NCBI GenBank assembly: GCA_049606355.1
Contig: JBMYVL010000005.1
Span: forward strand, 60,001-92,000
Source: Opitutales bacterium
Lineage (GTDB): Bacteria; Verrucomicrobiota; Verrucomicrobiia; Opitutales; Coraliomargaritaceae
Length of the DNA: 32,000 nucleotides
Direction of reading: 5' to 3'
Part shown: piece after piece, positions 23,722-31,672 of the stretch
Numbering within the stretch: position 1 is the stretch's first letter
How the letters are laid out: every line of letters begins with the position of its first letter
Notes under the pieces: model-generated
The model's database searches: none
Seen by the model: the letters and a program-made list of their open reading frames with translations, nothing else
What the model was told of the DNA's origin: nothing
Position numbers and translations under genes: made by a program

Positions 23722-24747
23722 ATGAAGTCCACCCCCAGCATCCGCGTCCAAAACCTTACGCGCCGCTTTGGGGCAGTGACGGCGATTCAAAACGTCAGCT
23801 TCACCGTCGATCACGGTGAAATCGTTGGTTTCCTCGGGCCTAACGGAGCCGGGAAAAGCACGACGATGCGTATCCTAAGCGGTATTTTATCGGCTACGTC
23901 GGGGTCCGCTTGGGTGGGCGGCGTATCCGTGGCTCAGCACCCGCATGATGTTAAGCGCAAGATCGGCTACATGCCGGAAAACAATCCGCTGCCGCAGGAC
24001 ATGCGCGTGGTTGAGTATTTGCGTTTTCGCGCACGGCTCAAAGAGGTCCCCACCAAACAACTGCGCAGCACTGTCGAAGCGGCGATGGAGACCTGCGATC
24101 TAGCGCGCACGGCACGGCGAAAAATCATTGGCACCTTGTCGAAGGGCTTCCGCCAACGTGTGGGGATCGCGGATGCGCTGTTGGGCGACCCACAAGTGAT
24201 CATCATGGATGAGCCGACCATCGGCCTCGACCCCCACCAGATTCAGGGGATCCGGCGCTTGATTGACAGCCTGCGGGGGCGCATGACGGTCGTCCTCTCC
24301 AGTCACATCCTCCCCGAAATTGAGCGCTGCTGTGATCGTGTGGTCATTATCAACCAGGGGCGAATTGTCGCTGCCGGCGATCATGATACCCTGCGCGAAG
24401 AATTCCTCCCCGGCAACCGCTTCCAAGTGGAAGTCGAAGGCTCCGACGCTGCCTTGCAGGCTGCCCTCCGCACCCGCGGCATTCAGGTCGAACTCCTTGA
24501 GGCCACGCCGGAGCAAACGCAGCGACGTTCTCTGGTGCTCCGCACCGAAGACGACCGCACCCACGGTGTCGTCTTACTCGAAGCACTGCAATCGGCGGAA
24601 GACTGCAGGGTACACAGCCTCGCACGCCTCAAGCCCAATCTGGAAGAGATCTTTTTAGCCGCGACCAAGCGCTCGTGGGAGGAAACCATTGAAACGCCGC
24701 GGCAAAGCGACCCCAGTCCAGCCCAGCCCAGCTCAACCAGCGTATAA
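23722..24747 (+). CDS. ABC transporter ATP-binding protein (GldA-like, with C-terminal extension)
   Basis: ATG 23722 (MKSTPSIRVQNLTRRFG...); alternative starts at 23689 and 23647. Walker A GPNGAGKST, Q-loop, signature LSKGFRQR, Walker B VIIMDEPTIGLD, H-loop SSH. Confidence 0.9.
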   Translation: MKSTPSIRVQNLTRRFGAVTAIQNVSFTVDHGEIVGFLGPNGAGKSTTMRILSGILSATSGSAWVGGVSVAQHPHDVKRKIGYMPENNPLPQDMRVVEYLRFRARLKEVPTKQLRSTVEAAMETCDLARTARRKIIGTLSKGFRQRVGIADALLGDPQVIIMDEPTIGLDPHQIQGIRRLIDSLRGRMTVVLSSHILPEIERCCDRVVIINQGRIVAAGDHDTLREEFLPGNRFQVEVEGSDAALQAALRTRGIQVELLEATPEQTQRRSLVLRTEDDRTHGVVLLEALQSAEDCRVHSLARLKPNLEEIFLAATKRSWEETIETPRQSDPSPAQPSSTSV

Positions 24748-24749
24748 CG

Positions 24750-28959: not shown

Positions 28960-28963
28960 GGCA

Positions 28964-31672
28964 ATGCCTAAACCACACCGCAGCACTTCGCGCCGGCGAG
29001 TTTCTGAGCAGTGGCTCCGCGCCCTTCTCTTGGTACTCCTCGCCGCACAATGCTTCGCGATTGGCTGCTTACTCGCCTACGAAAAACTTTCCCTACCGAG
29101 TCGATGGGTGAACCCATGGCTGCACAAACAAGCAGTCGACGGCTTCTACTTTCAGACTGAAGCCATCCACCTGCGCCTTAACGGCGACTTGGAGCTGCAC
29201 AAGGTCAGCCTGCACTCGACCGATCATGCTTCAGCCTTACTCGAAGCTGATGGAGCAGTCGCCCGAGCACGACTATTCGATGGTGTCCGCCCCCAACTGG
29301 GCCTTCGCCACCTGGTGCTCACCAATGGCACACTCTACATGCCCGCGGTCTATGCACCCAATGGCGTGCGCACTCCAATCCTGCAAAAAATTGGCTTTCG
29401 CTTCAGTCCGACCGAAGCCGCCTTAAACTTGGAGCACTTCGTCGCGGCGCATGAAGCGATTCGGATTCGAGGGTCACTGCAATGGCCGCTCACAGGCGCA
29501 CCGATCGACCCACCGCAAAAACAAGCGCAATTACTCAAACAGATCTACAGCAGTCTCGCTACCGCCTTAAAAGCCAAGACCTATGCGGCCCTGTTGGATT
29601 CCCCAAGCCTCTATGTTGACCTGCATAGCGAAGACGGCAAAGCGCTACAGATCGATGCACATCTATACAGCCCGAAGCTGGAGTATGCCGGCAGCAGCGG
29701 CAACAACCTGCACGTACAAGGCAAACTGCAGGTCCATGAGGCACGACTCGAATGTACCGAACCGCTGAGCTTTACACTCGAGAATTTTTCTGCACCGCAC
29801 TACGCCCTAAAGGCAGGCTCGATCGTTGGACAATTGCCAGCATTGAATTGGCAAGCGATCACTCAGGGAGCGTGGCCCGCGTTTGATGTCGCCACTGAAT
29901 ATCTGGAATTCAGACAATTCAATCTGCATGCGCCACAGATAAGTATTGATCCGCATCTTTTCCCGACAGTGACATTGGCAGGCGCTATGGGTGGCTATGG
30001 CGGCACTTCGCGTTTTCAAGCTACGCTCGATTTGCAGCAACTAAATGGCCACGCGCACACTCAGGGCACAGTCGATCTGCTGCAGTTGCTACCCTCCGGA
30101 TTACAACAGCACCTCCCCGATTACCGTTTTGAATCGGCTCCCTATTGTGACTTAAAACTACATTTTGAAAACGGGTTTGCGCTGAGCCGTGCCGAATTTC
30201 ATGCGCAGGCCCACAAGCCGCAACTCGCCGGAGTCGCGTTCGATATGCTGCGGACTCGAGGCAGCTATGCGCAGCAGCAATTAGAGCTTAAACAATTCAG
30301 TTTCGATCGTGGTCAACAGCACCTTGACCTACACTTGCACTACGATCTTGAAAACCAGGCCTATCAAACGGGGCTGTACGGTAGCATTATCCCCAACGAA
30401 TACAATGCACTGATGCCACGCTGGTGGCGGAACCTCTTCAACGATAACTTTCGCTTCACTTCCAACAGTGAAGTCCATGGAGACTTTCGTATTCATGGCG
30501 GCAGCTCTCCCTTTCGGACGGATCTCTACTATGGCACGATTCAGGGCAAAGACCTGAGTTACCGAGCGGTACCTATTGATGCAGGCAGCTTAATTGTACG
30601 CGGTCGCCGCAGTTATTCAGAGATCCACCAATTGCATGCACGCAGCGGTGAGGGCTTTTTGCGTGGCGATCTACAATTCACGAGTTTTCGCGATGCAATT
30701 CGAGCACCGGCTTCGATACGCTATGCCATCAATGCTGAGCTGCCGCTCCAATCCGCACAAAAATTAGTGACCCCTACGATCGCCAAAACTATCGAACGCT
30801 TTAGTGCCGAGCAATTGGTTCAGGTCGAATTAAATGGAGCGCAATTCAATGAAGCGCTGTACCCACAATTCGAAGATAAAAGCTTTGTCCACCTCACCGC
30901 GAATTCTAAGGGTCCAATACAGTATGCCCGTGTGCCACTTGATTATCTACGCTTCCGCCTCGACGCCGCACGCCGCTTCACTGCGATGCGCGAATTAACG
31001 TTCGGCTTTGCGAATGGAACCGGCACGGGAGCCATCGACATCGACTCCACGGATAAAAGCCAGCCCGCAGAGTTACACCTGCAGCTCTCTTTGAAAGATG
31101 CGGACTACAAGAAATCCCTGCAATCCATGCCAACGTCAGCAGATCTCGAGCGAAGCCTCGAAACCGCGCCCGAATCATCTCCCGACCAAGGACGGGAGGA
31201 CGCACGAGTCGCCGTCGACTTACACGCGAACGGCCCTGCAGATGATTTGTATCAACTGAACGGATACGGATCTTTCATTGTCAATGATGATGCGCTTGGC
31301 TCGATCCAGTTACTCGGCCCATTATCCAAAGTGCTACAAGAAACACCGCTCGGCTTTACGTCGTTTAATTTAAACCGAATGCATGGTGTTTTTTCGATTG
31401 GCGAAGCGCAACTCGACTTTTCCTCGCTCTCCATCGATGGTCCTCAGGCGAAAATTAATGCATCCGGCACCTTGCAACTACGCGACCATGCCCTGGACAT
31501 GCTAGTCGGCGTCGACCTATTTGGTAACATTGTCGGCACTACCAATGGCGTCCAACAGACCATCAAGATGCTGAATCCGCTCAATTACTTACTGCAGTTT
31601 CAACTTACAGGTACACTGCAGCAGCAGCGCTTCCGGTCGCTCTTCGATCCGCGCAATTTTTTACCGTTCTGA
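28964..31672 (+). CDS. Large (902 aa) membrane-anchored protein, AsmA/YhdP-like (tentative)
   Basis: Starts 4 nt after the DUF4340 stop. Basic N-terminus plus a single TM (WLRALLLVLLAAQCFAIGCLLAY). The body is long and beta-rich with no catalytic motifs. The C-terminal segment FTSFNLNRMHGVFSIGEAQLDFSSLSIDGPQAKINASGTLQLRDHALDMLVGVDLF resembles the AsmA_2 C-terminal region. The CDS itself is solid; the family call is tentative. Confidence 0.55.
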   Translation: MPKPHRSTSRRRVSEQWLRALLLVLLAAQCFAIGCLLAYEKLSLPSRWVNPWLHKQAVDGFYFQTEAIHLRLNGDLELHKVSLHSTDHASALLEADGAVARARLFDGVRPQLGLRHLVLTNGTLYMPAVYAPNGVRTPILQKIGFRFSPTEAALNLEHFVAAHEAIRIRGSLQWPLTGAPIDPPQKQAQLLKQIYSSLATALKAKTYAALLDSPSLYVDLHSEDGKALQIDAHLYSPKLEYAGSSGNNLHVQGKLQVHEARLECTEPLSFTLENFSAPHYALKAGSIVGQLPALNWQAITQGAWPAFDVATEYLEFRQFNLHAPQISIDPHLFPTVTLAGAMGGYGGTSRFQATLDLQQLNGHAHTQGTVDLLQLLPSGLQQHLPDYRFESAPYCDLKLHFENGFALSRAEFHAQAHKPQLAGVAFDMLRTRGSYAQQQLELKQFSFDRGQQHLDLHLHYDLENQAYQTGLYGSIIPNEYNALMPRWWRNLFNDNFRFTSNSEVHGDFRIHGGSSPFRTDLYYGTIQGKDLSYRAVPIDAGSLIVRGRRSYSEIHQLHARSGEGFLRGDLQFTSFRDAIRAPASIRYAINAELPLQSAQKLVTPTIAKTIERFSAEQLVQVELNGAQFNEALYPQFEDKSFVHLTANSKGPIQYARVPLDYLRFRLDAARRFTAMRELTFGFANGTGTGAIDIDSTDKSQPAELHLQLSLKDADYKKSLQSMPTSADLERSLETAPESSPDQGREDARVAVDLHANGPADDLYQLNGYGSFIVNDDALGSIQLLGPLSKVLQETPLGFTSFNLNRMHGVFSIGEAQLDFSSLSIDGPQAKINASGTLQLRDHALDMLVGVDLFGNIVGTTNGVQQTIKMLNPLNYLLQFQLTGTLQQQRFRSLFDPRNFLPF

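Follow-up and report, generated by a model that had tools for sequence, protein, structure and literature searches.

In Escherichia coli, the AsmA-like proteins YhdP, AsmA, TamB and YdbH share a single N-terminal inner-membrane anchor followed by a long amphipathic beta region, and these proteins are implicated in phospholipid transport between the inner and outer membranes by way of a hydrophobic groove (PMC10345924, PMC10665443). Current bacterial models regard them as passive, ATP-independent conduits, without an ABC partner or a known inner-membrane motor, the associated bulk phospholipid flow in E. coli being bidirectional and reliant on proton motive force, not on ATP (PMC10345924). The directionality and energy source of AsmA-like and of eukaryotic bridge-like lipid-transfer proteins is an open question. 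A precedent for an ABC transporter that feeds a periplasmic bridge is the Lpt system (LptB2FGC-LptA-LptDE), which combines an ABC motor, one or more anchored periplasmic adaptors and a bridge with an open hydrophobic beta-groove (PMC10345924). For the GldA/GldF/GldG module of Bacteroidota, the substrate is unknown, and its role in the gliding of these bacteria, Flavobacterium included, is indirect and has been described as unclear (PMC10202324).

The locus reported here encodes five proteins on one strand. Its features are as follows, with positions numbered in the window, that is, the whole stretch of 32,000 nucleotides that was analyzed:

23573..23721, no strand: upstream intergenic region, presumed operon promoter region (gap between divergent genes)
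23722..24747, plus strand: gene 1, ABC ATPase, 341 aa (ORF listing, Pfam/NCBIfam)
24750..25514, plus strand: gene 2, ABC-2 type permease, 254 aa (ORF listing, Pfam/NCBIfam)
25514..26995, plus strand: gene 3, GldG-like accessory protein, 493 aa (ORF listing, Pfam/NCBIfam)
27001..28959, plus strand: gene 4, DUF4340 protein, 652 aa (ORF listing, Pfam)
28964..31672, plus strand: gene 5, probable AsmA-like protein, 902 aa (ORF listing, family-level profiles, model)

A comparison with the Bacteroidota module shows the same set of ABC_tran ATPase, ABC-2 permease and ABC_transp_aux protein, GldA, GldF and GldG being the best-scoring NCBIfam models for genes 1 to 3. However, two extra dedicated genes (DUF4340 and AsmA-like) are present here, and the host belongs to Verrucomicrobiota. 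With respect to the E. coli AsmA-like proteins, the 902-aa protein has the same overall layout and a size close to that of YdbH (879 aa), whereas its gene context is different. Its gene is always the last of an ABC-transporter operon, while TamB pairs with TamA, YdbH with YnbE/YdbL, and yhdP and asmA adjoin unrelated genes in E. coli K-12. The likeness to Lpt is one of working principle and not of homology, the permease being of the ABC-2 and not the LptFG fold, and the bridge AsmA-like instead of a beta-jellyroll. Moreover, Lpt has an outer-membrane translocon (LptDE), and no counterpart of it is encoded in the five-gene operon. A pairing of the ABC/GldG/DUF4340 set with an AsmA-like protein was not found in the searchable literature.

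Operon layout and expression signals

In the ORF listing, the spacing between successive genes of the block (23722-31672) is 2, -1, 5 and 4 nt, as given in the preliminary description, and at the second junction the start of gene 3 overlaps the permease stop (gcaTAATGaaa, i.e. TAATG). A consensus scan revealed, within the block, no promoter- or terminator-like site beyond what shuffled sequence would give. The sole sizeable non-coding gap adjoining the block is the upstream region 23573..23721, common to a divergent RNase D-like gene that is kept as a neighbor in 8 of 14 Opitutales loci; a sigma-70 consensus was not detected in this gap by the same scan, and Shine-Dalgarno-like sequences are absent before all five starts. 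On the 3' side, a convergent HNH gene delimits the operon, ending about 7 nt past the stop of the 902-aa gene. The five genes are almost certainly one co-inherited, co-transcribed unit. The gene 1 ORF is also open from an upstream TTG at 23647. The ATG at 23722, and not the TTG, is the supported start: alignments with homologues begin at the first residue of the product read from the ATG, and a related locus (L001) has its called gene starting at the equivalent position.

The ABC module and its accessory proteins

The product of gene 1 is clearly a GldA/DrrA-like ABC ATPase, with a Pfam ABC_tran domain (105.8 bits) followed by a C-terminal DrrA1-3_C-like domain (DrrA1-3_C, 24.5 bits). Its motifs are intact (Walker A GPNGAGKS at 39, signature LSKGFRQR at 139, Walker B VIIMDEP at 159 and the H-loop at 193), and it is 65-76% identical to its relatives. 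The permease matches Pfam ABC2_membrane_2 (53.1 bits vs a cut-off of 27.2) and has about six transmembrane (TM) segments, with hydropathy peaks at 14-44, 98-124, 137-164, 171-189 and 232-250; a search by sequence gave no relative of solved structure. A motif-intact ABC_tran ATPase and an ABC2_membrane permease of about six TM segments, encoded by separate adjacent genes, correspond to an ABC-2 (type V) exporter. Lipids or lipid-linked polymers are the usual substrates of this exporter type (Wzm/Wzt, TarGH, ABCA1/ABCG).

The GldG-like product of gene 3 has TM segments at both ends by hydropathy (about 21-42 and 469-487), and between them DUF7088 (51-149) and ABC_transp_aux (186-435, 78 bits vs 34.7), both predicted to be periplasmic. 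The product of gene 4 is anchored by an N-terminal TM segment (5-23, by hydropathy) and matches Pfam DUF4340 (PF14238) in three stretches with 175 bits against a gathering score of 25, with repeats at 71-250 and about 259-396. Its fragment 441-652 has no Pfam match; the C-terminal region of about 200 aa is conserved and is followed by a Pro-rich tail. The identity of this protein is 45-59% among Opitutales relatives and 33% with respect to a more distant clade. Thus, the accessory proteins are predicted to sit at the inner membrane and to face the periplasm. The Pfam and NCBIfam families that had been given for genes 1 to 4 hold as described. Likewise, the operon contains no outer-membrane component, in line with the same description, and its four non-cytoplasmic products carry TM helices of the inner-membrane type.

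An identity with the GldAFG of gliding motility was considered and rejected. The corresponding NCBIfam models (GldA_ABC_ATP, GldF and GldG; TIGR03522, TIGR03518 and TIGR03521) score 275.1 bits vs a cut-off of 402.6, 111.3 vs 288.5, and 61.2 vs 389.85, in the last case with only residues 23-151 matching. Since all three fall well short of the equivalog cut-offs, genes 1 to 3 encode homologues and not the gliding-motility proteins. Also, no gld, spr or por genes (gliding and type IX secretion) occur in the window.

The 902-aa protein and the AsmA clan

The preliminary description had taken the 902-aa protein as AsmA-like. Its own best evidence in Pfam is a sub-threshold match (YhdP, 13 bits vs a cut-off of 46, E 0.023), and in Pfam and NCBIfam it stays below every curated family threshold, those of the AsmA-clan models AsmA, YhdP, TamB and DUF748 included. 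The claim is partly supported when the family is considered. Close homologues come nearer to the thresholds (P0002, 19.8 bits for YhdP; P0003, 28.7 bits vs 29.8 for AsmA), and in 52 members of a family of 576 strong cluster representatives, matches were obtained to YhdP in 25 (best E 6.5e-12), AsmA in 8, DUF748 in 6 and TamB in 2. AsmA-clan families are all the Pfam families matched by more than one of these 52 members, no unrelated family being matched by more than one, and one homologue is named at NCBI 'AsmA-like C-terminal region-containing protein [Opitutaceae bacterium]'. Moreover, hhalign of the family profile with E. coli YhdP (probability 72.5%, E 3.3e-5) pairs residues 632-897 with 970-1256 of 1266, C-terminus to C-terminus, so that the last 260 aa or so are aligned; the C-termini are also aligned with AsmA (51.6%, E 1.5e-4), and the comparisons with TamB and YdbH were negative.

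The architecture is of the clan type as well, with a single N-terminal TM anchor and a long beta-rich domain in both the model and the hydropathy profile. The AlphaFold2 model (pLDDT 88.7, 55% strand) has an N-terminal helix of 31 residues (9-39), followed by about 860 aa of beta-rich repeats in seven strand blocks closed by short helices. The anchor has a hydrophobic core of 19 residues (20-38, hydropathy 2.54) preceded by a run of Arg; a conserved lipobox is absent. The strands are amphipathic, the even/odd hydropathy difference being 2.47 vs 1.21 in shuffles (z = 9), and may form a putative hydrophobic groove. The AsmA-like assignment therefore derives from transitive matches at the family level, the hhalign results for the YhdP and AsmA C-termini and the predicted anchor and amphipathic repeats, which suggest with moderate confidence a remote, collinear homology to the AsmA clan at the level of family and profile.

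A Foldseek search of the model against the PDB recovered neither TamB nor other groove proteins, and gave only matches with TM-scores of 0.1-0.2 to LptD, the ApoB100 beta-belt and ushers. As the best of these are the LptD and usher barrels (E 1e-5 to 1e-3), the strands are amphipathic and the protein terminates in Phe, it could be argued that the 902-aa protein is not AsmA-like and is itself an outer-membrane beta-barrel, i.e. the missing outer-membrane component. We judge this highly improbable. The TM-scores of 0.10-0.17 and rmsd above 35 Å indicate a generic beta-sheet resemblance, the N-terminus is a signal-anchor and not a cleavable signal peptide, helices interrupt the strand blocks every six or so strands, unlike in a barrel, and both the clan-restricted Pfam matches and the collinear C-termini argue for the AsmA clan. 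A further candidate, GspN of the Leptospira type (NCBIfam TIGR04411, T2SS_GspN_Lepto), matches residues 800-889 only, with 33.9 bits vs a cut-off of 50, and a type II secretion reading was rejected, gsp genes being absent from the window and related loci.

Conservation of the gene order

The co-occurrence of the five-gene order in relatives, which the preliminary description had left to be checked, was found in all the informative ones. Within Opitutales, 14/14 loci (13/13 GTDB genomes and L001) have the gene order ATPase-permease-GldG-DUF4340-AsmA-like. The same order is seen in a distant clade with an AsmA-like protein of only about 18-20% identity, both in 72/72 loci that include the upstream flank and in 40/40 loci that span 6.2 kb or more. 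Also, three outlier lineages (L102-L104) maintain it among different flanking genes, which indicates that the linkage itself is under selection. The junctions are short in relatives too, reaching at most about 53 nt among the called genes of L001 and L102-L104, and the projected gap between the DUF4340 and AsmA-like genes has a median of 36 nt over 74 loci. Among the best 150 members of the AsmA-like subfamily, a DUF4340 gene precedes in all whose context was visible. As order, strand and close spacing recur in all related loci that are informative, the arrangement is, judged by genome comparison, far beyond chance. The named relatives all belong to Verrucomicrobiota/Opitutales (Coraliomargarita, Lentimonas, Thalassobacterium, Puniceicoccaceae and Opitutaceae).

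In other phyla, the ATPase-permease-GldG-like-DUF4340 core occurs without the AsmA-like gene, as in plasmid p195_1 of Bradyrhizobium sp. 195, in a Subdoligranulum variabile replicon (a monoderm of Bacillota) and in the SAR11-related HIMB59, for which a preprint predicts the four subunits as a complex (bioRxiv 10.64898/2025.12.11.693642). These modules end with their DUF4340 protein, which has 175 aa in Bradyrhizobium and at most 441 aa in Subdoligranulum (longest-ORF call, overlapping the upstream gene), compared with 650 aa in Opitutales. The Opitutales version thus adds to the four-gene modules a conserved C-terminal region of the DUF4340 protein and the fifth gene. Because the core exists without a bridge, even in a monoderm, the AsmA-like gene is a lineage-specific add-on and not intrinsic to this ABC module, which can work with no bridge.

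These modules are consistent with co-transcription without coupling, the AsmA-like protein being a stand-alone passive bridge, like YhdP or AsmA, that lies in one operon with a GldAFG/DUF4340 exporter unrelated to it, solely because of a common role in envelope biogenesis and a common expression level. The lack of an ABC partner and the ATP-independent lipid flow of the known AsmA-like proteins (PMC10345924) point in the same direction, and within the same loci the AsmA-like gene has diverged much faster than its four neighbors, with identities of 27-43% against 45-82%. Nonetheless, we consider this explanation unlikely, since the adjacency is absolute in every set of loci above, down to about 18% identity, with very short gaps and the DUF4340 gene always upstream where visible, and co-regulation alone rarely keeps an order so strictly.

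A possible energized bridge

From the co-inheritance of the five genes, we infer an energized inner-to-outer-membrane machine, and likewise the physical association of its products, its cargo, direction and energetic coupling. The reading that we favor, with slightly less than an even chance, is that the five genes build an ABC-energized, inner-membrane-anchored envelope transporter for hydrophobic cargo. Its motor would be a dimer of the ATPase and a dimer of the ABC-2 (type V exporter-like) permease, of the GldA/GldF lineage, and the GldG-like protein, with TM segments at both ends, together with the N-anchored, multi-repeat DUF4340 protein, would form a periplasmic superstructure. The 902-aa protein would extend its long amphipathic sheet, with the putative groove, towards the outer membrane. 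In the mechanism that seems most likely, ATP hydrolysis would pull out of the inner membrane a cargo that is hydrophobic or carries a lipid anchor, such as a phospholipid or glycolipid, and the cargo would then be loaded onto the AsmA-like groove for directional transfer to the outer membrane, as LptB2FGC feeds the Lpt bridge. A more specific proposal, tentative and rather doubtful, is that a bridge-like (AsmA/VPS13-type) lipid-transfer protein would here be hard-wired, in a first case of its kind, to an ATP-driven ABC extractor, giving an energized, unidirectional, Lpt-like lipid conveyor evolved independently in Opitutales, in which the GldG-like and the enlarged DUF4340 proteins would act as loading adaptor.

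The five products could also form one machine with another job or direction, such as Mla-like retrograde (outer-to-inner) lipid retrieval, the export or assembly of a non-lipid surface component (polysaccharide, lipoprotein or, with a TamB-like part in assembly, outer-membrane protein), or an FtsEX/MacB/NosDFY-like mechanotransducer that remodels periplasmic proteins without translocation. The direction of transport is not fixed by sequence, and the GldAFG module, of unassigned substrate and with an indirect role in Bacteroidota (PMC10202324), leaves room for such functions. Moreover, protein-assembly roles have been attributed to TamB as well (PMC12800296), and GldG-type domains are related to the GIFT domain of IFT52, to which the Subdoligranulum GldG homologue has a weak Pfam match. 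However, no Omp85/TamA-like, glycosyltransferase or polysaccharide-export genes are linked in any lineage examined, and the amphipathic strand pattern suits a hydrophobic cargo. Also, the neighbors in two of the outlier lineages are the fatty-acid and biotin genes accB-accC and birA-coaX, a weak pointer to lipid metabolism. Such other functions are, in our view, distinctly unlikely.

An AsmA-like subfamily whose gene invariably follows those of an ABC transporter and two periplasmic adaptors is a concrete, testable candidate for an energized bridge. If the proposed lipid conveyor is correct, membrane-lipid extraction would be the first molecular function for the widespread, uncharacterized GldAFG/DUF4340 transporters. 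The locus would also offer a handle on the function of this group, which is spread from SAR11 relatives to Bacillota. The source genome is that of a marine Verrucomicrobiota (Opitutales), and the cultured hosts of the locus include Coraliomargarita parva, C. algicola and Lentimonas spp.

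Organization of the five-gene block

The preliminary description placed genes for an ABC ATPase, a permease, a GldG-like protein, a DUF4340 protein and an AsmA-like protein in a row on the plus strand. This five-gene observation is confirmed, and the reported junctions are exact: genes 1 and 2 lie 2 nt apart, genes 2 and 3 share 1 nt (TAATG), and gaps of 5 nt and then 4 nt follow.

Genes of the block (from the ORF list) and the gene that follows it
23722-24747, plus strand: gene 1, ABC ATPase (TTG 23647 is an alternative start of this ORF)
24750-25514, plus strand: gene 2, ABC-2 permease
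25514-26995, plus strand: gene 3, GldG-like protein
27001-28959, plus strand: gene 4, DUF4340 protein
28964-31672, plus strand: gene 5, AsmA-like protein of 902 aa
31680-32000, minus strand: convergent HNH-endonuclease gene, ending about 7 nt past the stop of gene 5

The start of gene 1 is assigned to the ATG at 23722, because homologues align from residue 1 and the called gene of a related NCBI MAG locus (L001) starts at the equivalent codon. No Shine-Dalgarno-like motif was found before any of the five starts, nor did a consensus scan within the block reveal promoter- or terminator-like sites in excess of what shuffles give. The upstream boundary is a divergent RNase D-like gene. At the other end, the HNH gene lies so near the stop of gene 5 that no space is left for an intrinsic terminator; over residues 92-198, its product and the HNH protein of L001 are 92% identical.

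Genes 1 to 4 encode an ABC-2 module related to GldAFG

The product of gene 1 matches ABC_tran in Pfam (106 bits) and carries a weak DrrA1-3_C C-terminal domain, with the Walker A, signature, Walker B and H-loop motifs all intact. The permease encoded by gene 2 shows roughly six hydrophobic segments and matches ABC2_membrane_2 (Pfam, 53 bits against a cut-off of 27). Judged from these sequences, the block encodes a catalytically competent ABC-2 transporter. Moreover, gene 3 presents the GldG architecture, with DUF7088 and ABC_transp_aux located between N-terminal and C-terminal transmembrane helices.

The top NCBIfam models for genes 1 to 3 are GldA, GldF and GldG, with scores of 275, 111 and 61 against equivalog cut-offs of 402.6, 288.5 and 389.9, respectively. 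Because these scores are below the cut-offs, the three genes are homologues of the gliding-motility module and not members of it, and with the phylum also being the wrong one, a gliding-motility GldAFG identity was rejected.

Gene 4 encodes a single N-terminal transmembrane helix followed by repeated DUF4340 domains (Pfam, 175 bits). Its C-terminal region of about 200 aa (residues ~450-652; window 28350-28959) has no Pfam match, is kept in both clades of AsmA-linked modules described below and ends in a Pro-rich tail. This Pfam-less third is a candidate docking region or adaptor to the AsmA-like protein. According to predicted topology, the products of genes 3 to 5 each have an inner-membrane anchor and a large periplasmic part. 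For the permease, GldG-like and DUF4340 proteins, no solved-structure relatives were detectable by sequence in the PDB.

Gene 5 encodes a relative of the AsmA clan

Taken alone, the 902-aa protein falls under every curated threshold (YhdP, 13 bits against 46). It also scores 33.9 bits with a Leptospira-type GspN model, against a cut-off of 50; given this score and the absence of gsp context, a type II secretion GspN reading was rejected. A word-indexed search with the protein returned four relatives only, and a protein search with a 52-sequence alignment gave these four again. An exhaustive profile search, by contrast, uncovered a large family, with 2,328 cluster representatives when the limit is set at E <= 1e-3 and 576 when it is set at E <= 1e-30; almost all are about 900 aa long and match end to end. 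Among 52 diverse members, Pfam matches were obtained to YhdP (25 members, best E 6.5e-12), AsmA (8), DUF748 (6) and TamB (2), which are the sole families matched by more than one member and all belong to the AsmA-like clan. A Syntrophin PH match (E 8e-4, one member only) was rejected as spurious. The matches are also ordered along the chain, the N-terminal ones corresponding to N-terminal parts of the AsmA and DUF748 models and the C-terminal ones to the C-terminal part of the YhdP model.

A comparison by hhalign of a profile of 80 family members with single E. coli sequences aligned profile columns 632-897 with residues 970-1256 of 1266 of YhdP (probability 72.5%, E 3.3e-5) and columns 415-897 with residues 140-577 of 617 of AsmA (probability 51.6%, E 1.5e-4); TamB and YdbH gave no alignment. 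One homologue is labeled by NCBI as 'AsmA-like C-terminal region-containing protein [Opitutaceae bacterium]'. The PDB, searched with the family by sequence and by profile, yielded nothing.

The gene 5 product was modeled with AlphaFold2. A first run with 5 sequences (pLDDT 54, meaningless Foldseek matches) was replaced by one with an 80-sequence alignment, which gave a confident model with a mean pLDDT of 88.7 and a pTM of 0.66. The model shows a 31-residue N-terminal helix and has 55% of the chain in strands, which form seven blocks, each made of about six to nine strands and closed by one or two short helices. Such periodic strand blocks are the pattern of repeating-β-groove proteins. Also, the strands are amphipathic, with an alignment-averaged even/odd hydropathy difference of 2.47 against 1.21 +/- 0.14 for within-strand shuffles (z = 9; reached by 0/2000 shuffles). 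Gene 5 encodes an AsmA-clan relative with amphipathic β repeats, and the predicted model is consistent with a groove fold. Foldseek comparison of this model with the PDB gave TM values of only 0.10-0.21, to LptD, the ApoB100 β-belt and ushers, which are generic matches between curved β-sheets and were not counted as evidence for a barrel; TamB was not among them. A closed outer-membrane barrel is very improbable for this strand-rich protein, since the N-terminus is of the signal-anchor type and a conserved lipobox is absent, helices break up the strand blocks, and the homology at the sequence level leads to the AsmA clan.

A motif of the form P477 ... P485-x-W487-W488 (window 30392-30427; residues 477-488) is invariant or nearly so across both clades of the family. 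In the model it sits in short helices between β-blocks 4 and 5, and it may be an interaction site.

Conservation of the five-gene order

A locus scan of one genome per GTDB species, made with an 8-sequence alignment, identified 13 loci, all from Opitutales (Coraliomargarita, Lentimonas, Thalassobacterium, Puniceicoccaceae and Coraliomargaritaceae). The order ATPase, permease, GldG-like, DUF4340 and AsmA-like is found in 13/13 of them and in L001. Identity to the window proteins drops along the operon, being 65-76% for the ATPase, 62-82% for the permease, 54-74% for the GldG-like, 45-59% for the DUF4340 and 27-43% for the AsmA-like protein.

The gene 5 family is formed by two clades, that of the window and a larger, distant one, whose AsmA-like proteins are only ~18-20% identical to those of the first. 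Scanning metagenomes with the distant clade gave 80 loci. A DUF4340 gene on the same strand lies directly upstream in all 72 loci whose upstream flank exceeds 600 nt (median projected gap, 36 nt), and all four upstream genes occur in order in 40/40 loci where it exceeds 6.2 kb. Moreover, three outlier-clade representatives carry the same five genes among entirely different neighbors, so it is the linkage itself that is conserved and not a larger syntenic block.

A protein search with the window DUF4340 protein returned close Opitutales relatives only, except for the label of one homologue, P0204. This DUF4340 protein is 56% identical to that of the window and is named 'Flavobacteriaceae bacterium' by NCBI, all other matches being from Opitutales; it probably comes from a mis-binned contig. 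Neither the AsmA-like nor the DUF4340 protein found a match among plasmids by tblastn.

Modules made of the first four genes and lacking an AsmA-like gene are also found. On a Bradyrhizobium sp. 195 plasmid (NZ_CP082162.1; L106:5141-8952), an ABC ATPase, a permease, a 'Gldg family protein' and a 175-aa DUF4340 protein are followed by HupE/UreJ. A replicon of Subdoligranulum variabile (OY725868.1; L107:3954-8465), a monoderm of the Bacillota, encodes ABC_tran, ABC-2, DUF7088 with ABC_transp_aux, and DUF4340 proteins, the next sizeable ORF being on the opposite strand. In both modules the DUF4340 protein is much shorter than that of the window; the one of Subdoligranulum, called as the longest ORF and thereby overlapping the preceding gene, has at most 441 aa. 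The same four-component module, predicted to form a complex, is reported for SAR11 in a preprint (10.64898/2025.12.11.693642), and the frequency of AsmA-less DUF4340 modules rests on these two examples and this preprint. The ABC core therefore has no intrinsic need of an outer membrane, and the AsmA-like gene and the enlarged DUF4340 protein are a lineage-specific elaboration in Opitutales.

A possible route for hydrophobic cargo

Lipids or lipid-linked polymers are the typical cargo of ABC-2 or type V exporters. AsmA-like proteins have been implicated in carrying phospholipids from the inner to the outer membrane by way of a hydrophobic groove (PMC10345924, PMC10665443), and Lpt is a precedent for an ABC extractor that feeds a periplasmic groove (PMC10345924). 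In the mechanism that we propose, the ABC core would extract a hydrophobic cargo, which the GldG-like and DUF4340 proteins, acting as adaptor, would then load onto the AsmA-like groove. Comparative genomics and modeling make this a plausible reading, to which we give a little less than an even chance. The preliminary description had suggested an energised inner-to-outer-membrane machine joining an ABC-2 exporter to an AsmA-like bridge; this interpretation held wherever it could be tested, its functional core being a proposal drawn from the same comparisons and models.

The five-gene unit is co-inherited and tightly packed, and co-transcription without coupling between its products is the main alternative, though an unlikely one. 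As for the energy source, a 2023 review of AsmA-like proteins treats the bulk movement of phospholipids between the membranes as a diffusive, bidirectional process that depends on PMF and not on ATP, and names no ABC partner for these proteins (PMC10345924). A single machine with another cargo, another direction or a mechanotransducer role is also rather improbable. For the gliding homologues, GldAFG has 'no clear function' according to a 2023 review on type IX secretion (PMC10202324).

Full-text literature searches returned no paper that connects AsmA-like proteins with GldAFG, GldG or DUF4340. In the literature searched, DUF4340 is mentioned in only four papers, and none of these is a functional study. 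In a Tn-seq study of Verrucomicrobium spinosum, the DUF4340-domain gene VSP_RS39600 was re-classed as 'essential#' by sliding-window analysis (PMC12283558). The components are of known kinds, and their fixed five-gene combination appears to be undescribed in the literature searched. The strictly conserved association makes the power and direction of bridge-like lipid transfer experimentally approachable, and cultured Coraliomargarita or Lentimonas strains would be feasible hosts for that question.

Neighboring genes

A tyrosine recombinase gene (Phage_integrase and SAM_4) shares 8 nt with the end of a PolX-PHP polymerase gene (window 19134-22065, minus strand). The recombinase occurs at the same place in the related loci L001, L005 and L006, with PolX also in L001, and this positional conservation suggests a resident Xer-like gene of the chromosome and not a mobile element. 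A mobile-element origin was rejected on these grounds. For RNA families and tRNAs, the window gave a single result, a tRNA-Pro (GGG) at 10364-10440, plus strand. About 6 kb upstream of the operon (16314-17600, minus strand) lies a gene for a DUF481 protein, a YdiY-like outer-membrane β-barrel; none was seen near the module in related loci with listed called genes, and for this reason it is an improbable candidate for the missing outer-membrane partner.

In the distant clade, a large sensor histidine kinase (weak CHASE, PAS, HisKA and HATPase_c) is encoded on the same strand 3' of the AsmA-like gene, directly after it in some loci and ~2 kb downstream in others (L002:7983-10697, L003:4788-7418, L017:4738-7374 and about 45 of the metagenome loci L022-L101). 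It is absent in the clade of the window, where the convergent HNH gene is found instead. Finally, in two of the outlier-clade loci, L102 (1781-4525; 17051-18888) and L104 (1725-4555; 12942-14799), nadC-birA-coaX lies upstream of the five-gene module, and accB-accC, for the biotin carboxyl carrier protein and biotin carboxylase of fatty-acid synthesis, follows on the other side, immediately downstream in L104 and ~4 kb further in L102. These flanks are a weak contextual pointer to lipid metabolism.
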